The notes under the pieces were generated by a model. That model did not search any database and was not told the DNA's origin. It saw nothing but the letters and a program-made list of their open reading frames with translations. From positions 1 through 64,000 of the forward strand of contig JBAMMA010000006.1 of the NCBI GenBank assembly GCA_039794005.1: a stretch of 64,000 nucleotides of DNA, given 5' to 3'. This document shows, piece by piece, positions 1,103-54,709 of the stretch. The stretch is from Thermoplasmata archaeon. Its GTDB lineage: Archaea > Thermoplasmatota > Thermoplasmata > Thermoplasmatales > ARK-15. Position numbers and translations under genes: made by a program. The stretch's first letter is position 1, and each line of letters begins with the position of its first letter.

Positions 1103-2383
1103 ATGGATAATGAATTAACAAAATTAAGGGGTTTTAGAGAATTTTATCCCGATGAAATGGAGGCCAGAAAAATAGTATTTGATAAAATGAGGGAAATATC
1201 AACAAAATTTAATTTCAGGGAAATAGATGCTCCAAGTCTAGAGAATTTCGAAATATTTAGGAGAAAGAGCGGTGATGAGATAATAAATCAAACATTTTCG
1301 TTCTATGATAAAGGAGGTAGGCATATAACGCTTATTCCTGAAATTACACCAATAGTTGCGAGGATGGTTTCACAGGTAAAAAATATGCCAATGCCGCAGA
1401 AATGGTTCTCGATTCCAAAATTATGGAGATATGAAGAACCACAGAGCGGTAGGTTGAGGGAATTTTATCAATATAATGCTGACATATTTGGTTCTAAATC
1501 TGTATATGCGGATGCTGAAATTATTCTCCTTTCCAAATCAATATTAAACAATTTGGGATTAAAGGACAAATATATTATAAAAATTAGCGATAGATATTTA
1601 GCGGAAAATATTCTGAAGAAGGAGGGATTTGAAAATATAGAGGAAATATTCAAAATTATAGATAAAATGGAAAAGATTGGAAAAGAAAAGACAAAGGAAA
1701 TTCTTTTAAACGTTGTAGGGGAAGATAAGGCTAATAGAATAATAGAAATATTTTCATTAAGTGGAGAATTTGATCATATAGTTAATAAGATTGAATATAA
1801 TGAAAGGCTTGATTATCTTGGTACATTGAACGATATTTTAAAGGATATTGATTATGGAAAATTTATTTTTGATCTTTCTATCGTGAGAGGTTTGGCATAC
1901 TATACAGGCCTTGTGTTTGAGGGCCACGATTATAAAAATGAGTTTCGTGCAATTTTAGGTGGAGGAAGATATGATAGGCTAACAGAGATGTTTAATGCGA
2001 ATATACCTGCCGTGGGGTTTGGGATGGGTGATGCCGTATTGGAACTGTTGATGAAAAGAGAAAAAGTCTGGCCGGAATATAAAAGGTATTTGGACTTTTT
2101 TGTGGTCATAGTTGGAGATTTTCAAAAATATGGTATGAAAATAATAAAAGAATTGAGGGAAATGGGGTATTCGGTGGATTATGATCCAGACTTTAGGAGC
2201 ATTCAAAAACAGATGAGGATGGCTCAAAGGGAAAATGCGAGATATGCAATAATATTAGGAGAAGAGGAATATAAAAATAATAATATAAAAATAAAGGATA
2301 TGGAAACCGGGAACCAGGAAACGGTTCCTTTTGAAAATTTGACTTTAATACTACGAAAATATAATTTACCCAAAAGACATTGA
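1103..2383 (+). CDS. hisS: Histidine--tRNA ligase
   Basis: Motifs LRGFREFYP, WRYEEPQSGRLREFYQ, RGLAYYTG and GGGRYD, plus a C-terminal anticodon-binding domain. Confidence 0.97.
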   Translation: MDNELTKLRGFREFYPDEMEARKIVFDKMREISTKFNFREIDAPSLENFEIFRRKSGDEIINQTFSFYDKGGRHITLIPEITPIVARMVSQVKNMPMPQKWFSIPKLWRYEEPQSGRLREFYQYNADIFGSKSVYADAEIILLSKSILNNLGLKDKYIIKISDRYLAENILKKEGFENIEEIFKIIDKMEKIGKEKTKEILLNVVGEDKANRIIEIFSLSGEFDHIVNKIEYNERLDYLGTLNDILKDIDYGKFIFDLSIVRGLAYYTGLVFEGHDYKNEFRAILGGGRYDRLTEMFNANIPAVGFGMGDAVLELLMKREKVWPEYKRYLDFFVVIVGDFQKYGMKIIKELREMGYSVDYDPDFRSIQKQMRMAQRENARYAIILGEEEYKNNNIKIKDMETGNQETVPFENLTLILRKYNLPKRH

Positions 2384-2391
2384 ACATTTTG

Positions 2392-4500
2392 ATGGTTATG
2401 GGAAAGACTCTAGATTCAATGTTTAAACCTCAATCTATTGCAATAGTTGGAGCTTCTAGAGATCCACATTCAATTGGTTATTCAATAGTTAAAAATTTGA
2501 TAGATTCAAAATATCAGGGTAAAATATTTCCCGTAAATCCAAAGGCCGATGAAATTTTGGGATTAAAATGTTATCATAGTGTGACTGAGATAGAGGAAGA
2601 TGTCGATTTAGCTGTGATTACGGTGCCTGCTGCAATAACTCCACAGGTAGCGGAGGAATGCGGGAAAAAGGGTGTTAAATCCCTGGCTGTTATTGCCTCT
2701 GGATTTAGCGAAGTCGGTAGAATAGATCTGGAAAAACAATTAATTGAGGTAGCCAAAAAATATGGAATGAGGGTTCTGGGGCCAAACATAGTCGGAATAA
2801 TGAACAATCCATTAAAAATGAATGCATCATTCGCACCATATCTACCTTATCCTGGAAAGATAAATCTGATTTCACAGAGTGGCGCTTTATTGGTTGCGCT
2901 TGACAGCAGGACATGGGTAGACAGGGTAGGTATGTCATATTTAATAAGCATAGGAAACATGAGCGATTTGGATTTTGCGGATCTCATAGATTACTTTAAG
3001 GATGATCCGGATACTTCCTGTATTTCACTTTATGTTGAAGGAATTAAAAATGGAAGGAAATTTATAGATATTACAAAAAGGGTCCTGGAAAAACCGATAA
3101 TCGCTTTAAAATCCGGGGTATCGGAAAGGGGTTCCATAGCGGCTGCTTCACACACCGGATCTCTGGCTGGTTCCGGGAAAATTTATGCGGCCGCGTTTAA
3201 ACAGGCGGGTGTTGTACAGGCTGAAAACCTGGAGGATTTATTTGATAAATCATTGGCCCTATCAATGCAGCCACCCATGAGGGGGGATAATCTGCTTATA
3301 ATAACGAATGGAGGCGGTGTTGGTGTTTTGGCAACGGATGCGGCAGAAAAGTTTGGTATTCCTTTAAAGGAACCTCCGGATGATCTTAAAAATGAATTAA
3401 AGAAGATAATGCCTGATTTTGGAAGCGCAAAGAATCCGGTTGATCTGACAGGAATGGCAGATGCGGAATGGTATGGAAAGGCTTTAAAGATTGCCCTGAA
3501 ACATCCCTGGGTGGATGGTGTTACCGTTTTATACTGCGAAACGTCCGTGAGCGACCCGAGGGATTTGGCAATAGAAATATATGAGGCAAATCTTGAGGCA
3601 TCGGAATGCAATAAGATAAAGAAACCTATTACAGTATCATTCATTGGAGGAGAAGTAACGGAAAGGGCCATAGAATGGTTGCAAAAGAAGGGGATACCCG
3701 TATTCAGGTCACCCGATAGGGCCGTTAGTGCGATTTCAGCGCTCAGGGAATATGGTAGATTTATAGACAAAGGATTTGATGAATTCCAGAAATTCTGGGA
3801 TGTCGATTACGAGGGAGTAAGGGAAATTTTAAAGGATATTCAGTTAAATAAGAATAATTACGTTTCGGAGATAGATGCCAAGATAATATTGGATAAATAT
3901 GGTATACCTGTTGCAAAAACCGTTTTAATAAAATCAAAGGATGAAATTGATAATTTGGATATAAACTATCCAGTGGTTGCAAAAATCGTTTCCAGGGATG
4001 TAATTCACAAAAGCGATGTCGGAGGGGTTATACTGAATCTAAAAAATAAAGATGAATTAAAAGAAGCATACGATAAAATAATTGATAATGTCAGGAAGAA
4101 ATTGCCAAATGCAAATATTGAAGGTATAGCTGTCCAGGAAATGGCACCCCAGGGAATTGAAATTATCGTTGGTTCTACAAAGGATCCACAGTTTGGGCCA
4201 ACCATAATGTTTGGCCTTGGAGGAATATTCGTCGAAGTCATGAAGGACGTTAGTTTTAGGATAGCACCATTCTCAAAGTCTGTTGCAATAGAGATGATCA
4301 ATGAAATTAAGGGAAAGTCGATATTATACGGTGCCAGAGGATCCAGGGGAGGAGACATAGATAAACTTGCTGAGGCGATAAGCAGGATTTCACAGCTGGT
4401 AACAGATTTCCCTGAAATTAAGGAGTTTGATGCAAATCCAATCATGGTATATGAAAATGGTATCAAGGTAGTTGATGCAAGGATAATTTTGGAAAAATAA
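2392..4500 (+). CDS. acdAB: ADP-forming acetate/acyl-CoA ligase, fused alpha+beta subunits
   Basis: CoA-binding IAIVGAS, RVLGPN, phospho-His motif ASHTGSLAG, NPVDLTG and an ATP-grasp C-terminus (HKSDVGGV, DPQFGP). Start could be 2392 or 2398. Confidence 0.93.
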   Translation: MVMGKTLDSMFKPQSIAIVGASRDPHSIGYSIVKNLIDSKYQGKIFPVNPKADEILGLKCYHSVTEIEEDVDLAVITVPAAITPQVAEECGKKGVKSLAVIASGFSEVGRIDLEKQLIEVAKKYGMRVLGPNIVGIMNNPLKMNASFAPYLPYPGKINLISQSGALLVALDSRTWVDRVGMSYLISIGNMSDLDFADLIDYFKDDPDTSCISLYVEGIKNGRKFIDITKRVLEKPIIALKSGVSERGSIAAASHTGSLAGSGKIYAAAFKQAGVVQAENLEDLFDKSLALSMQPPMRGDNLLIITNGGGVGVLATDAAEKFGIPLKEPPDDLKNELKKIMPDFGSAKNPVDLTGMADAEWYGKALKIALKHPWVDGVTVLYCETSVSDPRDLAIEIYEANLEASECNKIKKPITVSFIGGEVTERAIEWLQKKGIPVFRSPDRAVSAISALREYGRFIDKGFDEFQKFWDVDYEGVREILKDIQLNKNNYVSEIDAKIILDKYGIPVAKTVLIKSKDEIDNLDINYPVVAKIVSRDVIHKSDVGGVILNLKNKDELKEAYDKIIDNVRKKLPNANIEGIAVQEMAPQGIEIIVGSTKDPQFGPTIMFGLGGIFVEVMKDVSFRIAPFSKSVAIEMINEIKGKSILYGARGSRGGDIDKLAEAISRISQLVTDFPEIKEFDANPIMVYENGIKVVDARIILEK

Positions 4501-13352: not shown

Positions 13353-15641
13353 ATGTTTGGTTTAGTAAGGAAAAGAAATGGAGATTATGTTTTATATAAT
13401 AGGAGTAAAATAAAAGAGGCAATAAAAAAAGCTTTTGTTGAAACAAATGAGGTTAAAAATGCAGATGAAGTTTCTGAAGATTTGAGCAAAAAGGTAGAGG
13501 AGATTTTAATAAAAAAGTTCGGTAATGATGTTCCTTCTGTGGAAGATATTCAGGACATTGTGGAAGAAGTCCTAATGCAGGAAGGATACGTAAAAACCGC
13601 AAAGGCATATATACTTTACAGGGAAAAGAGAAAGGAAATAAGGGAAATAAAAAACCTTTTTGGAATAAAGGATGATTTAAAGTTAACGGTAAATGCAATT
13701 AAGCTTCTACAGGCAAGGTATCTTCTGAAGAACGAGGAGGGAAAGATAATTGAGACACCCAGGGAAATGTTCTGGAGAGTTGCCAGATATGTTGCATTAC
13801 CTGAAATATTATACCATGAAGAAGTTTATGACATAAACGGAAAGCAAAAGGAAAAAGGCATAGAAATAAAATATACTTCAAAGAAGGCAAATCTATCCAA
13901 GTATGAAATGGATATGTTGTATAGGGCTTACAGATCTTTAAACTCCGAGGGAAAAATGAAAGTATCATTTGACGAATTGATGAAATTTTTGGATGACCAT
14001 TACGATGAGGTAGAAAAACTTGCCAAAAAGTTCTACGAGATAATGGTAAATTTAGAATTTTTGCCAAATTCACCCACCCTGATGAATGCAAATACACCAA
14101 TAGGCCAGTTATCGGCCTGTTTTGTAATACCAATAGATGATTCCATTGAAAGCATATACGATGCTTTAAAATATACAGCAATAATACACAAATCCGGAGG
14201 GGGAACTGGATTCTCTTTCTCCAAGCTAAGGCCTCAGGGAGATATTGTAGGAAGTACGATGGGGGTGGCATCAGGACCGGTTAGCTTTATGCAAATTTTT
14301 GATGTATCAACGGATGTAATAAAACAGGGAGGAAAAAGAAGGGGGGCAAACATTGGAATATTGAATGTGAACCATCCGGACATTATTCAATTCATTAACG
14401 CAAAGGGGTTTGAGGGTAAATTTAAAAATTTTAACCTCAGCGTGGCGATAACAGATTCTTTTATGGATGCACTGTTGGCAAATGAAGATATTGAGCTAAT
14501 AAATCCAAGGAACAAAATGCCTGTCTCGAGGATACCTGCGAGGCAGATATGGAATCTGATAATATCAAACGCATGGAAAACGGGAGATCCTGGAGTTTTG
14601 TTCATTGATGAAATTAATAGAAGAAATCCAACACCCTTGCTTGGCGATATAGAGGCTACAAACCCATGTGGGGAGCAGCCCCTTTTACCATTTGAATCAT
14701 GTAATCTAGGATCTATTAATCTAAGCAAATTTGTAAACGATAAAGGGGAGATTGAATGGGATAGGCTTAAAAAGGTAATAAAGGTTGCAGTACATTTCCT
14801 AGACAATGTTATTGATGCAAATAAATATCCAATACCCCAGATAGAGTACATGACGAAACAGACCAGAAAAATAGGGTTAGGAGTGATGGGTTTTGCTGAA
14901 ATGCTAATAAAAATGAAGGTACCATATGCAAGCAAGAGGGCAATAGAAATAGCAGATGAAGTGATGAGTTTTATTGAAAATGTCAGCCATGAAGAGAGCG
15001 AAAATTTGGCAAAGTACAAGGGGACTTTCAAGGCATGGGAATTTTCAGTATGGTATGAAAAAGGTATTAAAATGAGGAATGCTACAACGACAACGATCGC
15101 TCCCACTGGATCGATATCAATAATAGCCGGCACATCCTCAGGAATAGAACCTCTGTTTGGTCTTGTCTTTGTAAGAAATGTCTTGGAAAATACCGAGATG
15201 ATAGAGATAAATCGTCTTTTTGAAGAGGAGTTAAGGAAAAGGAATTTGTATTCAGATGAAATTCTAAGGGAAATCTCTGAAAAGGGGTCAATACAGAATA
15301 CAAGTTTGCCGGATGATCTAAAGAGGATTTTTCAGGTAGCCCATGACATCGATTTCAGGTGGCACGTATTAATGCAGGCCACCTTTCAGAAGCATACTGA
15401 CAACTCTGTTTCAAAAACCATAAATTTGAGGAATGATGCCACGCTGGAGGAAGTGGAAGAGGCATACATGCTTGCATACAAGTTAAAATGCAAGGGAATA
15501 ACAGTATATAGGGACAGGAGCAAGAGGGAACAGGTCATTTACACGAGGCTAGATGAAAAGGAATTGAAGGAAATATTGAATGAAAGAATAAACAGGGAAA
15601 AGGAGGAAAAGATACAGAAAAGGATATCGGATAATCTATGA
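13353..15641 (+). CDS. nrdJ: Adenosylcobalamin-dependent (class II) ribonucleotide reductase with N-terminal ATP cone
   Basis: ATP cone (VRKRNG...VEDIQDIVE), PNSPTLMNA, LSACF, QGGKRRGAN, ATNPCGEQ, TIAPTG and KGITVYRD. Confidence 0.95.
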   Translation: MFGLVRKRNGDYVLYNRSKIKEAIKKAFVETNEVKNADEVSEDLSKKVEEILIKKFGNDVPSVEDIQDIVEEVLMQEGYVKTAKAYILYREKRKEIREIKNLFGIKDDLKLTVNAIKLLQARYLLKNEEGKIIETPREMFWRVARYVALPEILYHEEVYDINGKQKEKGIEIKYTSKKANLSKYEMDMLYRAYRSLNSEGKMKVSFDELMKFLDDHYDEVEKLAKKFYEIMVNLEFLPNSPTLMNANTPIGQLSACFVIPIDDSIESIYDALKYTAIIHKSGGGTGFSFSKLRPQGDIVGSTMGVASGPVSFMQIFDVSTDVIKQGGKRRGANIGILNVNHPDIIQFINAKGFEGKFKNFNLSVAITDSFMDALLANEDIELINPRNKMPVSRIPARQIWNLIISNAWKTGDPGVLFIDEINRRNPTPLLGDIEATNPCGEQPLLPFESCNLGSINLSKFVNDKGEIEWDRLKKVIKVAVHFLDNVIDANKYPIPQIEYMTKQTRKIGLGVMGFAEMLIKMKVPYASKRAIEIADEVMSFIENVSHEESENLAKYKGTFKAWEFSVWYEKGIKMRNATTTTIAPTGSISIIAGTSSGIEPLFGLVFVRNVLENTEMIEINRLFEEELRKRNLYSDEILREISEKGSIQNTSLPDDLKRIFQVAHDIDFRWHVLMQATFQKHTDNSVSKTINLRNDATLEEVEEAYMLAYKLKCKGITVYRDRSKREQVIYTRLDEKELKEILNERINREKEEKIQKRISDNL

Positions 15642-16451
15642 ATGAGTTGAAATAAATATCAATATATCTAACAACAATGATATATCGATTATGAGTATTG
15701 CGCCCAGGAATATGAAATATGACATATACAAAAGATTATGTGACCTGTGGAAAAGAGTAAATGATGCATTTACGAATGTCAATACTGTGATTGTTGTTAA
15801 TATTATTAGAATTAATATTGGAAGATTATTATACCAAATCTGTTTTAGAAATATTGGTGTTGTAAATATCAACAATGTGAATAATATTATGCCGATTTCA
15901 ATATATACAGAAAGATTTGGCTTTTCAAAATGAAAATAGTGCATGTAAGATATAAAACCTACAGAGAGCATTAAATATAAAACATATATTAAAAAGAAAC
16001 CTTCTGTGAAATTGATGTAAAATATTGATTGCATATGGAATGGCAATATGGATAATAATAAAATAAACCATATTATCATGATCAAAGAAAATAAAATGTT
16101 GTTATAAAATATGATTCTGTAATTCAACTGTTCCGATAAATTCTTGGCATTTTGATTATTATCTATAATATTCGAATAAATATTATCTATTCTATTTGAA
16201 ATTACGTTCACCCTAATACCATTTGAAGTGAGAATTTTCTGGACATTTCCATTTTTTAATAAATTCTTTACATCATTAATCCTTTCTTTTTTCAAAGAAT
16301 AATAATTGTAATATTTGTTGATCGATTTGTTTATTTCAATATATTTTTTCAAATTGGATTTTAAGACATAGTATATTAAATAAATTACAATAAATGAAAT
16401 AATTATATAAGGGAGGAAAGGTATTATTCTGAACAAATCAATTACTATCAT
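15636..16451 (-). CDS. Hypothetical multi-pass membrane protein
   Basis: 271-aa ORF with one N-terminal TM helix, a soluble Asn/Lys-rich segment and about five C-terminal TM helices. No family recognised. Confidence 0.65.
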   Translation of the reverse strand: MIVIDLFRIIPFLPYIIISFIVIYLIYYVLKSNLKKYIEINKSINKYYNYYSLKKERINDVKNLLKNGNVQKILTSNGIRVNVISNRIDNIYSNIIDNNQNAKNLSEQLNYRIIFYNNILFSLIMIIWFILLLSILPFHMQSIFYINFTEGFFLIYVLYLMLSVGFISYMHYFHFEKPNLSVYIEIGIILFTLLIFTTPIFLKQIWYNNLPILILIILTTITVLTFVNASFTLFHRSHNLLYMSYFIFLGAILIIDISLLLDILIFISTHS

Positions 16452-16596: not shown

Positions 16597-16671
16597 AGCG
16601 GGGTGGGGTAGCCTGGAAATCCCGACGGGCTCATAACCCGTAGATCAGTGGTTCAAATCCACTCCCCGCTA
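16597..16671 (+). tRNA. Initiator tRNA-Met (CAT)
   Basis: AGCGGGG...CCCCGCT-A with an A1:U72 pair, three G:C pairs in the anticodon stem (GGG/CCC) and loop CTCATAA. Confidence 0.96.
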
Positions 16672-19888: not shown

Positions 19889-20110
19889 ATGAAATTGAAT
19901 GATTTTTTAATGATGAAAGAAAAAGGAGTATCAGATGTTATAGGTACGCTGTTAATGCTCGCAATTACTGTTACATTATTCAGTTCTGTTTTTTATTATG
20001 TTTCAACCCTTCCTCCACCACCATCACAGATATATTCCTCCTTCCAGGTAAAATATCTGCCTGACTATACCAATGGTACTTTCATATTATATATGCTTTC
20101 TTGCCAGTGA
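19889..20110 (+). pseudogene. Type IV pilin-domain protein truncated by an IS256 end
   Basis: Class III signal KG|VSDVIGTLLMLAITVTLF. The frame runs into IS-derived sequence at about 20085 and stops. Confidence 0.75.
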
Positions 20111-20331: not shown

Positions 20332-21834
20332 TTAAGGTTCATAAGTAATGGGGATATATGAATAGTGATTAATAATGTTTATTTCGTAAAAGTATGTAAT
20401 TATTATTGCATTTCCTGTTTCTAAATTGACCTCAAAATAAATTGTAGAATTATATGCCATATTAGGCATGTATGTGAAATTTATTAATACAGAATTACCA
20501 GAATACAAATTTGCTGGGTTTGCGGGATTTTTAAGTATATTTTGTGGCCAGTTATAATAAAATTCAAGGTTTAATTTATTATCTGAACCTTTGAAATAAA
20601 CAGTAAAGTTATACATATTATATATATATTTTGAATTAATATAATTTAAACTTATAACAAAATTTAAAGGACAAGAAGAATCCAATTTTAATGCTGTATT
20701 AGTTTGATATAAATCATATACAAATACATCCCCCCAAGAATTTGCATCAATCCCATCAGTTGTATATGCTATTGTGTCATTCGTCTGCAATACATACCAA
20801 TAATTATAACCATTAATTATTGAGTCATACATATCAAAAGTGACTGCTTGGTTTGTTCCTTCCGTATCTATGTTAACTCCATATGTTTGGAATGACTGTG
20901 TATTTGGATTATATTCATACATAGGAGTGTTATTGTTTAACTGAATTATAAACAGAGTATATTGATTTAAATCTGTTGAATATCCAATCGTAATACCGAT
21001 AGTATTTGATATTTTATTTGACACACGTAATGTATTCCACCCATTTTTTTTAAGTTGGTAAACATTACCAGTGAATGATATTCCATACAAATCATTACTT
21101 CCTTTACGGTATTCATCATAAAAAGCAACAGTAGAAATTATTTTATCATTTGTAGGGGTTACTGACCACCATCCAGAATAATTTTTCCCGGTTCTGGTTG
21201 CATTATATGTGGTATCAAATGCATATACTTCACCGTTTAAATTTGTAAATATGAAAAGTTCATCATATCCTTCATAATCTCCAAGAACATTCGATGTGAC
21301 AGATGTCCATGGTGAATGACCGTTATTCCATACATTTTGTAAAGTTAATCCCCATACATGAGAAGCATTAAACCATGCACCAGCATTCATATCATAAACA
21401 AAAACGTATCCATATTCAGTTAATAATGCAACATACCAATAATATGAATCATCAATCACCGCAATTGAAACAATTGGTCCTGCATATGAAAATCCGCTGT
21501 AATAAGGACTGGGTATATAATACCATCCATAATAATAATAAAATACTGTTCCGTAGTTATCCGTATAATAAACTATTCCGGAATCATCCACATAAATATC
21601 TTGAGCCCAGATACTTGTTAAATTCATATAAGCTTGATCTTTATATGAATTGAGATGGGTTGTCCAATATGGATAAAAATTTGTTGAGTTATCAAATGTT
21701 ATACAAGGACTTCTTGTTCCTACACTTACAGGATAATTATTAGAAATAATCACATCTGACTTGGTTACGGGTATCTCAAACATTAAAATAAAAACAATCG
21801 AAAAAATAATAAAAATTTGAAATATTTTATCCAT
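20332..21834 (-). CDS. Secreted Tyr/Asn-rich surface protein; putative filament tip adhesin with an inserted beta-rich (propeller-like) domain
   Basis: Sec signal peptide with mature start near DVIISNNYPVSVG, repeated G.VY/F..D...W blade-like units, many N-glycosylation sequons and no C-terminal anchor. Confidence 0.6.
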   Translation of the reverse strand: MDKIFQIFIIFSIVFILMFEIPVTKSDVIISNNYPVSVGTRSPCITFDNSTNFYPYWTTHLNSYKDQAYMNLTSIWAQDIYVDDSGIVYYTDNYGTVFYYYYGWYYIPSPYYSGFSYAGPIVSIAVIDDSYYWYVALLTEYGYVFVYDMNAGAWFNASHVWGLTLQNVWNNGHSPWTSVTSNVLGDYEGYDELFIFTNLNGEVYAFDTTYNATRTGKNYSGWWSVTPTNDKIISTVAFYDEYRKGSNDLYGISFTGNVYQLKKNGWNTLRVSNKISNTIGITIGYSTDLNQYTLFIIQLNNNTPMYEYNPNTQSFQTYGVNIDTEGTNQAVTFDMYDSIINGYNYWYVLQTNDTIAYTTDGIDANSWGDVFVYDLYQTNTALKLDSSCPLNFVISLNYINSKYIYNMYNFTVYFKGSDNKLNLEFYYNWPQNILKNPANPANLYSGNSVLINFTYMPNMAYNSTIYFEVNLETGNAIIITYFYEINIINHYSYIPITYEP

Positions 21835-21839
21835 AGTCT

Positions 21840-22418
21840 TTAAGGAGTATATGTAGATCCTGCAGGTTCAACGTAGTATGTTATATAAATTGTTCCAGTA
21901 TATGTTACGGAAGACGCTGAACCGCTCCACAAACAAAGAGATATATACAGTACAGGACCAGAGGTTGTAGTTTTTGGTATATAAAAAGCATAACTTGAAG
22001 TAATATTGATACCACTTGTAGGCCAGTTTATTGGTGATGTTGACGCAATTACTGCAACATGATTTAAATTACTAACATTTATGAGTACATATACAACTCC
22101 ATTAGATGTATCCCAGCCGCTTGTATTCACTATCTCCAATACATTTAAAAGATAAACGCTATCTGACCCTGTAACGTTGTTTATTATGATTGTTTGCTGC
22201 ATTATTACATTTGAATTAGAAGGAGGAGGATTTGTAAGACTGATCAACCCCATTTCTGATGCTTCCGGATAATTTGGTCCTGGAGCAAGATAAATATATG
22301 GTTTGGTACTTCCAAAGGTCAAAGGATATTCATAGGATATTACTACAGTCGCAGCAACGAGCATAGGCACCAAGATTCCAAGGATTGTTGATAATAATGC
22401 TAAACTTTTTATCTGCAT
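21840..22418 (-). CDS. Secreted beta-rich protein; putative thread-like (donor-strand) pilus subunit
   Basis: Signal peptide ...LVAA, N-terminal strand TVVISYEYPLTFG, PYIYLAPGPNY, YLLNVLEIVN. 192 aa with no anchor. Confidence 0.55.
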   Translation of the reverse strand: MQIKSLALLSTILGILVPMLVAATVVISYEYPLTFGSTKPYIYLAPGPNYPEASEMGLISLTNPPPSNSNVIMQQTIIINNVTGSDSVYLLNVLEIVNTSGWDTSNGVVYVLINVSNLNHVAVIASTSPINWPTSGINITSSYAFYIPKTTTSGPVLYISLCLWSGSASSVTYTGTIYITYYVEPAGSTYTP

Positions 22419-22589
22419 TTTTTATCACCTGACATTTTAAGAAAAAATATCATTATATAAATTTTTATGTTTTTAAAAATATATTATCTATGCCAATTAT
22501 ATTAAAATAAAAATTTTTATTTTATTATTTAATTTTTCATAAATTTATTAAACAAAGGGTTCATATTATCCTCTTTATCTATAACAAAT

Positions 22590-33180: not shown

Positions 33181-35460
33181 ATGATTAAAAAAATATTGGC
33201 TATTTTTATAATTATTGTTTTGATCTTAACCATACCCATGAATTTTTCAAAGTCTTCCAATCCTTATTGTAATAAAGAAACGGTCACTTTTTACATTCAA
33301 AATTTAACAAATTCAGTAAATGTAAACAATGTTACCACCACATATACATTCAATACTTTAAAAGGTGTAAGGGGTACAATTGATCATTCTGTTCATTATA
33401 TAATTGAGGACTGGTATTTATATCCACTACTGGCTGGAAATTTCTATATTTTTAATGGAACCTTTTGGATATATATTAGATTTAATGGAACGGATAACAA
33501 TCCAAATTTATATTTGACTTTATACGAAAGGTCTCCCTCCGGCCAGGAAACACAAATAGCAAGAGGGTCTTCTCATCCAATACTTGCAACCTCAATAGAA
33601 TCTTATTCAGTAAGTTTTAACACCACAGGGGTTGAGATTCCCTCTGGATATTCTTTGCATATTCATTTTGAGCTAGCCGGTGGTACTTCAACAATTTATT
33701 GGGTATACTATGGTAATTCTACGTATGCATCTGGAATGAATATAATTACAAATACCTCAATGTATATAAGCTCCGTTGAAACTTTAAATTATTTAAATCA
33801 GCCAGTCAAAGGATTTAGTCCAAATTCAACAAACAAACAAATAACGTTTTTAGCATACATAAACGATCCTCTGGGGGGATATGACATAAGAAATGTTTCA
33901 TTAAACATAAACGGAATTTCTTATATAATGATTAAAATTTCTGGAACAGAGGATTCATATACAAATATATATGAATTGCAATTAAACTATACCGGCTGGC
34001 AAACGGGAAATTATACTTATACCGTCTATGCACTTGACTATTCGGGTTTTTATTATTACCAAAATTATTACAAATATTTATGCTATCTAAGGTCATACGA
34101 ATCATATTTTTGGATCGGATTCCCATTAAAGATAGATATCACATTATACACATCATCAGGAATTCCAGTTTCAAATGCTTACGTTGGATTGCGGGTAAAT
34201 AATACTGTATACGGAAATTACACTATAAATGGGAAAACCTTAATATATGCATATGCTGGCACATATAATATTTTCATTGTTTATGACAATTATACTCTGC
34301 CTCCTGTAATGAAGACAATAATGAATGGAAAGGTATATGGAAATGTAATTAGTATTTCAAATTCAACAAACATAACGATATTTTCAGACATTGGAAATTC
34401 ATCCATAGAAATTCTGACATCAAACGGAATTCCAATTTACAATGCCCTGGTTTACATTCAATATCCCAATGAAAAGACTTTTATTTATCAAACTCCAAAA
34501 AATGGAACGTTAACATTTTATAACGTTGGTGGAGGAATTTATAAGGTTGTTGTGTATTATCAGGGAGTTGAAGTGTACAATTCTACGGTGAATTTTGTAT
34601 TTAATACAAGCAGTCCTTCTATTTTATTGAAAATATTTACGAAGGTATACAACGTAGAAATAATAGCTGGAAGCTATGCAGGAATAAACATTTCAAATGT
34701 TATGATTTTCATTAAGAATGTTTATGGATCTGAAAACATTAATACTACGAATTCTTCTGGAATTTCAACATTTGAATTACCTTATGGAAATTATCAATAT
34801 GAAATGGAATATATGAATACAATAGTTTCAGAAGGCAGTTTCAATGTAAGTAATAATGAATCTTTATATATTAAAACAGAAATATTCAAAGTGAATATAA
34901 AAATAGTGGATTCCCTTGGGAATACATTGAATTATTCTTACGTGGAACTAATTGGAAATGGTAACACATTAACCACAATTTCAAATGGAACTTTATCATA
35001 TATAATACCAATTGGAAATTATACAATAAATGTCTATTGGGATAACAAAGACGTGAATTCAACAAACATTTTTGTTTATGGAAATGAGAATATAACTATA
35101 AATAGCAGGGTATATTATTTGACGGTAAATGTCTATGATTCAAATAACATTCCCCTGAATTCATCATTTGTCATAGTTGAGAATAATCAAACGGTTGTTG
35201 CATTCTCATACAAGCCAATAAACACATTTAAGCTACCTTACGGTAATTATAGGATTTACGTTATTTATAAAGATACTTACTATTGGACAGATATAAATTT
35301 AATAAAGGAATACAACGTCACATTGAACAGTAATTATTTAATAAATGCAAAACTTCCATTCCCAATACCTTTTTATGAAACAGTTCTGTTCATTTTTGTT
35401 GTTATATTCTTAATTGCAATTGCACTGACTTTCATAATCACAAGAAAGATATTCAAATGA
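33181..35460 (+). CDS. Membrane-anchored cell-surface glycoprotein with tandem carboxypeptidase-regulatory/Ig-like repeats
   Basis: Signal peptide, repeats such as S.GIP..NA.V and LPYGNY, numerous NxS/T sequons, and a C-terminal TM helix followed by RKIFK. Confidence 0.8.
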   Translation: MIKKILAIFIIIVLILTIPMNFSKSSNPYCNKETVTFYIQNLTNSVNVNNVTTTYTFNTLKGVRGTIDHSVHYIIEDWYLYPLLAGNFYIFNGTFWIYIRFNGTDNNPNLYLTLYERSPSGQETQIARGSSHPILATSIESYSVSFNTTGVEIPSGYSLHIHFELAGGTSTIYWVYYGNSTYASGMNIITNTSMYISSVETLNYLNQPVKGFSPNSTNKQITFLAYINDPLGGYDIRNVSLNINGISYIMIKISGTEDSYTNIYELQLNYTGWQTGNYTYTVYALDYSGFYYYQNYYKYLCYLRSYESYFWIGFPLKIDITLYTSSGIPVSNAYVGLRVNNTVYGNYTINGKTLIYAYAGTYNIFIVYDNYTLPPVMKTIMNGKVYGNVISISNSTNITIFSDIGNSSIEILTSNGIPIYNALVYIQYPNEKTFIYQTPKNGTLTFYNVGGGIYKVVVYYQGVEVYNSTVNFVFNTSSPSILLKIFTKVYNVEIIAGSYAGINISNVMIFIKNVYGSENINTTNSSGISTFELPYGNYQYEMEYMNTIVSEGSFNVSNNESLYIKTEIFKVNIKIVDSLGNTLNYSYVELIGNGNTLTTISNGTLSYIIPIGNYTINVYWDNKDVNSTNIFVYGNENITINSRVYYLTVNVYDSNNIPLNSSFVIVENNQTVVAFSYKPINTFKLPYGNYRIYVIYKDTYYWTDINLIKEYNVTLNSNYLINAKLPFPIPFYETVLFIFVVIFLIAIALTFIITRKIFK

Positions 35461-54406: not shown

Positions 54407-54709
54407 TGCGAAGAGCCCGAGGGCAACTGACGCTGGTATCTATGTGATACCGGTGAGGAAAGTCCCCCCTCCTGAGACACCGGTCACACCGCAAGGTGTG
54501 GTCTCGAGAGAGACGGCAATGGCACAGAAACGACACAGCCATGGTAAAGGATGATTTCATGCGAAGGACGTTTCCATGGATTTGTTGAAACGGCCAACCA
54601 CCGGGGAGCAAGCCCAAGCAAACGCGATGACAGGTCTCTCGAGCGTTGGGTGGGGCGCATAGTCGAATGTTGCCTGAAACAGAAGGGGGCTTACTACGGG
54701 CACTTCGCA
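54407..54709 (+). ncRNA. rnpB: RNase P RNA (archaeal)
   Basis: Conserved regions GAGGAAAGTCC, ACAGAAA, TGAAAC and AACAGAAGGGGGCTTAC. P1 helix TGCGAAGAGCCCG / CGGGCACTTCGCA. Confidence 0.96.

Follow-up and report, generated by a model that had tools for sequence, protein, structure and literature searches.

A two-gene locus in a Thermoplasmata archaeon as a candidate thread-like, Sec-exported donor-strand pilus

Do archaea of the Thermoplasmatales carry genes for a surface fiber of the thread kind? Two adjacent genes raise this question in a 64,000-nucleotide stretch of DNA from a hot-spring Thermoplasmata archaeon (NCBI GenBank assembly GCA_039794005.1, contig JBAMMA010000006.1, positions 1 to 64,000 of the forward strand), which we call the window. 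An earlier sequence-only reading had proposed that the pair encodes a thread-like pilus, with a small major subunit and a larger adhesin. Homologues of thread and archaeal bundling pilus (ABP) pilins have reportedly been found in Thermoproteota only (PMC12337348; statements credited to the literature here follow the available portions of each source). The two genes are:

21840..22418 (−): small gene, a 192-amino-acid open reading frame (ORF); candidate shaft (major) subunit in a donor-strand filament of the thread/ABP class
20332..21834 (−): large gene, a 500-amino-acid ORF; candidate minor end subunit (initiator or cap) with a beta-propeller

The ORF list and the sequence confirm the two ORFs 5 bp apart and their N-termini as first quoted: the TAA stop codon of the small gene is followed by AGACT (five bases) and then by the ATG of the large gene. 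As this gap is the large gene's sole spacer, co-transcription and coupled translation are likely. Neither protein belongs to a family in Pfam, NCBIfam, PHROGs, or PADLOC, and neither matched a PDB chain in single-sequence searches. By hydropathy, the N-terminus is the sole 19-residue segment with a mean of at least 1.6 in both proteins (the best later values are 1.54 in the 192-residue and 1.22 in the 500-residue protein), which agrees with the earlier claim that neither has a further membrane anchor. The mature proteins are acidic (isoelectric point 4.2), with few Lys and Arg residues.

Subunits of thread, ABP, TasA, and Tafi filaments polymerize by an N-terminal strand that completes the neighbor's sheet (PMC9715654, PMC9245690, PMC11821415, PMC12337348). 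We conclude that the product of the window pair is probably a surface filament exported through Sec, not of type IV but of the thread/ABP class within the TasA superfamily. The family as a whole is best read as new and distantly related: donor-strand subunits of the thread/ABP class that come with modular end subunits.

Relatives of the small protein were gathered with a word-based search, which gave 8 close relatives among 269 candidates, and with an exhaustive profile search of 1.84 billion representatives, which gave 51 at E ≤ 1e-3. The resulting alignment, A3, holds the window protein and 42 relatives; nine matches (five fragments, a 39-residue piece, and three long or repeat proteins) were dropped. 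A second alignment, A5, is mature only, with signal peptides removed, and uses 29 of 34 references. The 42 relatives are about 175 to 240 residues long and share a basic N-terminus, a hydrophobic stretch, and a [VA]-x-A site followed by T/S/A-V-V/I-I. A protein atlas query with one homologue (P0012) gave a best score of 0.77, under the noise level.

The AlphaFold2 (AF2) model of the mature small protein, built on a 29-row alignment, has a predicted local distance difference test score (pLDDT) of 84.3 and a predicted template modeling score (pTM) of 0.79. It consists of ten strands and one short helix, in agreement with the single beta domain read from the sequence earlier; mature residues 1 to 18 have no regular secondary structure and precede a beta-sandwich. 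The thread and AbpA/TasA structures had been named as the comparison to make. Against 350,542 PDB chains, Foldseek returned exactly two matches at E ≤ 1e-3, the two solved archaeal Sec-dependent donor-strand pilins: AbpA (7ueg_A; E 1.4e-5, TM-score 0.54, probability 1.00) and the thread subunit (7pnb_A; E 2.4e-5, TM-score 0.46, probability 1.00). VIA-align placed AbpA and the thread subunit first and second among Foldseek's 991 candidates, and did so again in a Foldseek-independent comparison with 48,161 representative chains. Both alignments cover 141 to 142 of the model's 169 residues, and the head domain fits the thread-type and the AbpA jelly-roll fold alike. Chaperone-usher pilins and cannula subunits rank below them, with 25 of the next 28 entries being donor-strand pilus or cannula subunits.

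This result bears on a simpler explanation, in which the two products are secreted or surface beta-rich proteins that do not polymerize, such as a carbohydrate- or cell-binding complex. The tail would then serve export, glycosylation, or docking to a membrane protein, and the likeness to pilins would reflect a common beta-sandwich arrangement. We regard this as unlikely, given that the two archaeal donor-strand pilins stand 1.5 to 2.4 Z units above every other chain in the independent comparison and are alone in passing the Foldseek threshold.

Family profiles link the small protein to threads as well. Thread sequences were obtained by scanning genome contigs with a back-translated 8-residue motif, which gave four stretches, of which three were bacterial chance matches and one was a thread locus (L057); there was no Sulfolobus record among them. 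Alignment A6 uses 26 of the 39 relatives of the L057 thread gene, which are Sulfolobales by source names. With signal peptides included, hhalign matched A3 to A6 at Prob 97% and E 8.5e-11. Against the thread alignment without signal peptides, A3 scored 38.6 (Prob 70.5%, E 3.9e-5) over 146 columns, starting from mature residue 2 in both, and the mature small alignment scored 30.5 against the mature thread alignment (E 4.4e-4; 133 columns, residues 9–157 to 9–166). The probabilities for the small–thread comparison are modest, at 34–70%. Control scores reached at most 20.1 in 100 column shuffles and 20.2 in 60, 15.6 to 19.6 for reversed alignments, and 13.0 to 21.7 for five unrelated families. 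The profile similarity that the sequence-only reading had made decisive is thus present by hhalign; it covers the whole mature protein in register and scores higher than every control, which again argues against a non-polymerizing complex.

We also weighed a donor-strand fiber of the bundling or matrix kind (AbpA/TasA or Tafi/DUF1102), with the large protein as a TapA/AbpB/TafC-type nucleator. The Pfam families PF12389 and PF06510 match none of the 43 small-family members at E ≤ 10, and neither family was found in the source genome. Among 401 sampled genomes of the phylum, 20 have TasA-like (PF12389) proteins and 7 have DUF1102 proteins; those sampled from the window's order have neither. Six TasA-like proteins of the phylum do not align with the small family (hhalign 9.9, and 23.3 over just 12 columns); the thread family is the best and longest profile match. 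A SipW-like signal peptidase, proposed earlier as a gene to look for, did not turn up nearby: no dedicated peptidase lies near the locus, and of the genome's two weak TIGR02228 matches the nearer is about 83 kb away on the pair's own contig, while the second is on a different one. On these grounds we consider the bundling or matrix kind improbable.

A filament of the thread/ABP class needs a strand to donate, and both proteins begin with a candidate for it:

22350..22418 (−): signal peptide of the small protein (residues 1–23), likely cleaved after V-A-A, from pattern reading and family conservation
22269..22349 (−): tail of the small protein, mature residues 1–27, TVVISYEYPLTFGSTKPYIYLAPGPNY; putative donor strand
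21676..21756 (−): tail of the large protein, residues 27–53, starting DVIISNNYP; placed by hhalign with the small family and by low model confidence

BLASTP between the two proteins is weak (15/62 identities, E 0.04 in a single comparison). The common N-terminal pattern described in the sequence-only reading is borne out at the level of family profiles: hhalign of the large family (A2) with A3 gave Prob 79% and E 1.6e-5 over 46 columns, covering the signal peptide and the first mature residues, and without signal peptides it aligned mature large residues 1–27 with mature small residues 1–27, with no gap (score 24.8, E 2.2e-4). The large-family tail matches the thread family in the same register (E 0.05 alone). 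Gapless alignment with the small-protein tail extends to the tails of the second-gene proteins and the thread subunits.

The mature thread subunit begins with DVIYYY, its first 7 residues are identical in known homologues, and its mature end before Asp has been shown by cryo-EM (PMC9715654). The 7pnb chain sequence begins in the same way, and the motif given in the sequence-only reading was correct. Basic and hydrophobic regions and the [VA]-x-A site are kept across small-family N-termini by pattern reading, and in the profile alignment this site is in register with the thread-family site before Asp. The mature large protein begins DVIISNNY, with the thread-like Asp present and YYY missing.

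The tail is not confined to the window pair. In relatives, the small gene lies directly upstream of a large-family gene. Considering same-strand ORFs up to 200 bp downstream, the next ORF is a signal-peptide protein of 150 to 620 residues with the same tail for 19 of 22 distinct small genes; the other three (L048, L035, and L029) have no tail-bearing next ORF. Strand donation requires just this, one tail shared by second-gene bodies that are otherwise unrelated, which is a further point against a complex that does not polymerize.

The large protein combines its tail with two folded parts:

20677..21702 (−): beta-propeller, about residues 45–386, with six to seven four-stranded blades, from DSSP of the AF2 model and Foldseek
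20371..20661 (−): C-terminal eight-stranded beta-sandwich, about residues 392–488, ending in IINH[FY]SYIP, from the AF2 model and A2 conservation

Its AF2 model (pLDDT 85.7, pTM 0.84) starts with a signal helix at residues 2–19. The sole long low-confidence stretch, residues 19–40 (pLDDT 29–38), includes the tail, and about 28 strands in groups of four follow in residues 45–386. Foldseek of this model gave at least 500 matches at E ≤ 1e-3 (best E 5.5e-9), and the top ones listed are almost all propeller proteins. Blade-like repeats and a beta-sandwich-like C-terminus had both been read from the sequence, and the model agrees with each; in the sequence itself the repeat is weak (self-comparison offset of about 50 residues, E 0.007–0.009, with a recurring G.VY.Y motif). 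The C-terminal sandwich has no significant match with the small or thread families (hhalign E 0.1–0.3).

The search for large-protein relatives gave 29 among 2711 candidates; A2 holds the window protein and 25 of them, after its own record, two partial sequences, and one match covering 41% of the query were dropped. Family members come in forms of about 500, 607, and 850 residues, all ending in IINH[FY]SYIP. The 850-residue forms contain an additional domain, about 350 residues in size, immediately behind the conserved N-terminal stretch. Such an insert lies right behind the tail in P0022–P0028, P0031, and P0036 (about 835–855 residues), and P0021 and L008:1498-3369 (607–623 residues) have an insert of about 110 residues within the first blades. 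Both insert types lack a Pfam, NCBIfam, or PDB sequence match, and PDB sequence searches with the large family and the 854-residue variant P0022 gave nothing useful. Five short second-gene proteins of about 200 residues align with the large family at both ends: residues 1–77 to 1–76 (Prob 91.5%, E 8.5e-7) and, weakly, residues 90–169 to 370–446 (E 0.021). This two-ended alignment fits a propeller inserted into a minor-subunit scaffold.

A last alternative, which we consider highly improbable, is that the small protein is type IV pilin-like, keeps its hydrophobic helix, and is cut by a prepilin peptidase at K-S (MQIK, then S). Its N-terminus, short and charged, leads into some 20 hydrophobic residues that include a proline, as would suit such a protein, and the source genome has many Pilin_N proteins (10 matches). 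Neither the small nor the large protein, however, has a Pilin_N or archaellin N-terminal match (PF07790, TIGR02537), whereas a neighboring 73-residue stub does. The 34 small-family N-termini lack a conserved [KR]-[GA] prepilin site: immediately ahead of the hydrophobic segment they have K, R, S, L, M, or H, and never a conserved G or A, while [VA]-x-A before T/S/A-V-V/I-I is kept. The model and its PDB matches, being all-beta donor-strand pilins, likewise speak against a type IV protein, in line with the non-type-IV character proposed at the outset.

The stub itself (19889-20110, +) has a class III signal peptide and a Pfam Pilin_N match (1.8e-8). It corresponds to the first ~68 codons of a surface-protein paralogue family with open frames of about 1550–1610 residues elsewhere in the genome, with identities of 83% (G000:C1:55870), 70%, and 65%, and DNA similarity to the paralogue ends after about 237 columns (~68 codons). 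A destroyed type IV pilin gene had been reported at this place; the Pilin_N remnant is indeed there, but the gene whose 5′ end it preserves is that of a giant surface protein anchored by Pilin_N, not that of a small pilin.

How widespread is the gene set? With the mature profile, the small family was found in 54 of 169 genomes of the order, in 24 of 74 high-quality genomes, and in 23 of 37 genera. Across the phylum, 16 of 401 sampled genomes have it, 11 of them within the order; the best outside it is G420 (2.1e-10). In this genome, which is from another family of the phylum and has a high G+C content, L132:3532-4194 encodes a 220-residue protein that matches the mature small profile at 7.4e-13 and has no second-gene or membrane partner within about 4 kb. 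The family of the 500-residue protein is narrower (16 of 169 genomes of the order).

A third gene usually accompanies the pair:

15636..16451 (−): 271-residue polytopic membrane protein, family A4, usually the third gene; here 3.9 kb from the pair

By transmembrane scan, one hydrophobic segment lies at the N-terminus of this protein and about five lie toward its C-terminus; it belongs to no family in Pfam, NCBIfam, PHROGs, or PADLOC and has no PDB match. Of the 169 genomes of the order, 54 have the A4 family; in 31 of these, by a comparison of place tables, it shares a contig with a small or large gene at a distance of no more than about 1.5 kb. The order small, second, membrane is seen in three single-contig genomes; with the module found in complete genomes of the order, strains in culture may be available for cryo-EM.

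The A4 gene is not adjacent to the small or large genes in genera g19 and g33. In the window, SpoU, an FtsZ-like gene, an M24 peptidase gene, and tRNA-Met lie between it and the pair. Genome G008 of the same genus has the same block order, and its contig ends where the pair would be. The tRNA-Met gene (16597-16671, +) stands between the A4 and M24 peptidase genes, inside the block that separates A4 from the pair in this genus. A search for repeats in the 15–23 kb region, as a possible cause of the separation, found AT-rich chance matches only and none flanking tRNA-Met. A synteny argument by way of the FtsZ-like gene was dropped, the two proteins being only 24% identical. In bin G013 (9% contamination), at least five small/large/membrane modules lie on short contigs (C77, C92, C104, C117, C119, C154, C172, and C204), and many module matches in other bins are also at contig ends, which suggests multiple or strain-variable copies that break assemblies.

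Several results weigh against placing the pair with threads, and it is important to set them together. The mature small protein begins TVVISYEY, without the thread Asp and YYY. Its tail is not clearly better conserved than its body (family entropy 1.88 versus 1.99). In a PDB search with a full-length small profile, the Saci_0406 filament (7pnb_A) came first (E 0.26), but the mature-only profile did not list it at E ≤ 10, so that match rested largely on the signal peptide; 7ueg was not listed with either profile. Searches of sequences with mature profiles, in both directions between small and thread families, covered 477 and 328 ORFs and gave no match at E ≤ 10. Together with the profile–profile match, this means that the relation is visible only at the profile–profile level. 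A thread profile search of the source genome gave no match. The neighbors in thread loci (260 and 272 residues, Saci_0407/0408 type) are unlike A4, A2, A5, and the second-gene proteins (best E 0.012). Finally, seven DUF1102 proteins scored 33.6 as query against A3 (E 2.9e-4, 111 columns) and 25.0 as target (E 0.0073). These scores are above those of shuffles, so the placement with threads rather than with a sister class is soft. Against A5 the DUF1102 proteins scored 19.6–25.3 (shuffles at most 19.3), and against threads 17.9–18.6. Judged by sequence profiles, the small family of Thermoplasmata would lean to threads and touch the Tafi/DUF1102 class, in keeping with the idea of one TasA superfamily.

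A variant that we find possible but doubtful is a separate, undescribed branch of the TasA superfamily between threads and DUF1102/Tafi, with its own assembly and anchoring route and swappable end subunits. The route would use a dedicated polytopic membrane protein where other systems have a signal peptidase of their own or a pore in the S-layer, and the end subunits would be binding domains (a propeller or the extra 350-residue domain) inserted into a minor-pilin scaffold. Such a branch would be the first fiber of its kind in Thermoplasmatales.

Returning to the thread/ABP-class filament that we prefer, we propose the following mechanism. Both proteins would be exported by Sec and cleaved by the general signal peptidase, the small one after residue 23. 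The free tail of the small protein, 18 to 27 residues long, would insert as a donor strand into the incomplete beta-sandwich of its neighbor, and repeated donation would give a thin beads-on-a-string fiber with the small protein as its shaft. The large protein, from the same message, carries the same tail and so could dock into the free acceptor groove of one terminal shaft subunit. Its body need not accept a strand; with this polarity it would sit at the free-groove end, starting or capping the fiber, and would display the propeller, or other inserted domains in relatives, as a binding module. For larger neighbor-encoded proteins of known systems (Saci_0405, AbpB, TapA, and TafC), capping or nucleation through their own donated strand has been proposed (PMC9715654, PMC9245690, PMC11821415, PMC12337348). 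The polytopic membrane protein normally encoded after both genes is a candidate anchor or assembly platform. The sequence-only reading, thread-like pilus genes in a Thermoplasmata host, is supported in every testable part. What the analysis shows are the genes, the common tail, the fold, the remote profile similarity, and the conservation of the three-gene module; signal cleavage, strand donation, polarity, the adhesin role and end position of the large protein, and the part played by the membrane protein are inferred.

Expression of the pair may start from a region just 5′ of the small gene:

22421..22461 (−): putative archaeal promoter and ribosome-binding region, from sequence reading

It contains a TTTATATA box at 22461-22454 and GGTGA at 22429-22425, ahead of the ATG at 22418. 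A sigma-70 promoter scan, whose model is unsuited to archaea, showed no enrichment (34 versus 28.1 expected), and there was no terminator-like site. The genes around the pair are housekeeping genes (an RPA-like OB-fold protein, SpoU methylase, the FtsZ-like protein, M24 peptidase, and ribonucleotide reductase). Elsewhere in the window, 1-805 (−) is the 5′ portion of a 23S rRNA gene that extends past the window start, 33181-35460 (+) is a 759-residue ORF with no Pfam match at E ≤ 1e-5, and 54411-54705 (+) is a complete archaeal RNase P RNA.

In the available literature, no filament of this kind is described for this lineage. Threads, AbpA, and CanA are assigned “predominantly” to Thermoproteota in a 2026 preprint on the TasA superfamily, whose available text never mentions Thermoplasmata. 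In the available portions of a 2025 study of Thermoplasmatales surfaces, only the type IV pilus and the archaellum are treated, with threads as background, and these archaea are described as lacking a paracrystalline S-layer (PMC12448462). The wording on Thermoplasma in the ABP paper, as far as its accessible text goes, concerns the phylum Thermoplasmatota in a TasA survey and a reference title (PMC9245690), and among the literature in its available portions we found no paper linking the TasA superfamily with Thermoplasmata. A thread-class fiber in about a third of the order's genomes (54/169) would widen the range of Sec-dependent donor-strand pili and would give a sequence bridge between threads and Tafi/DUF1102 pilins. 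A4 would offer a candidate membrane assembly factor, the thread machinery being described as still unknown (PMC9715654). The system would also point to fiber anchoring in archaea without a regular S-layer and to variation of the binding end by domain insertion.

Several known systems can be compared with the pair. Bacterial chaperone-usher subunits (FimA, FimG, and CfaB) are an analogy only: their tip adhesin accepts a strand, whereas the large protein here has a tail to donate. An archaeon has no outer membrane, and a chaperone or usher is not to be expected.

Closer are the Tafi/DUF1102 pilins TafA and TafE, which are Sec-dependent, 150–200 residues long, and form a donor-strand filament with a strand-donating tip initiator, TafC (PMC11821415, PMC12337348). 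The small family shows a weak profile similarity to them, along with a language-model lead. Besides a dedicated signal peptidase, a DUF5305 protein is encoded in Tafi loci (PMC11821415, PMC12337348); the peptidase was not found near our pair. AbpA of Pyrobaculum calidifontis (PDB 7UEG; Wang et al. 2022, PMC9245690) is processed by signal peptidase I and has about 200 residues, and the donor-strand assembly proposed here is AbpA's. The gene after abpA encodes a larger secreted protein, AbpB, which is proposed to supply the first donor strand and to bear distal domains for adhesion; a larger secreted protein is encoded next here too. The AbpA system has no dedicated signal peptidase, and none was found near the pair. 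The TasA Pfam profile, which AbpA reportedly reaches through HHpred (PMC9245690), matches 0 of 43 small-family members.

Thread loci offer the fullest comparison. Metagenomic thread loci (L099:5128-9631; L069, L084, L086, L098, and L104) share a fixed order: a paralogue of about 340 residues with an insert, the thread subunit, a 260-residue beta protein with a transmembrane anchor, a 272-residue polytopic membrane protein, and thread-like proteins of 183 and 142 residues, which could be further minor subunits. A thread gene pair also occurs at L057:1393-1986 (−) and 2353-3108 (−), on a 3.5-kb contig of a metagenome-assembled genome (MAG) labeled Candidatus Rehaiarchaeum (Parvarchaeota); its thread protein is 91% identical to P0089 of a Saccharolobus MAG, and either the contig was mis-binned or the gene was transferred.

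Unlike the thread, the small protein has no N-terminal Asp or YYY and no HMM-level (hidden Markov model) similarity, and its host, by source names, belongs to Thermoplasmata rather than Thermoproteota. Its tail-bearing partner lies downstream, whereas the larger paralogue lies upstream in the thread loci examined. In the thread, an isopeptide bond joins Asn57 to the N-terminal amine of Asp24; as read from the alignments, the window protein has no Asn at the colinear position, which is variable within the thread alignment too. Like the Sulfolobus acidocaldarius thread subunit (Saci_0406, PDB 7PNB, arCOG10215; Gaines et al. 2022, PMC9715654), however, the small protein is a Sec-type preprotein of about 200 residues with a conserved tail and a beta-sandwich head. 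The tails are colinear over 27 residues at V2, I/V3, Y6, P17-18, I/L19, L/F21, and G24-P25-N26. Thread loci likewise hold a paralogue (about 335–340 residues) with a domain inserted in its head (L099:5128-6153). The small gene and its tail-bearing neighbor mirror Saci_0406 and Saci_0405, and in both systems the co-oriented neighbor shares the tail (PMC9715654).

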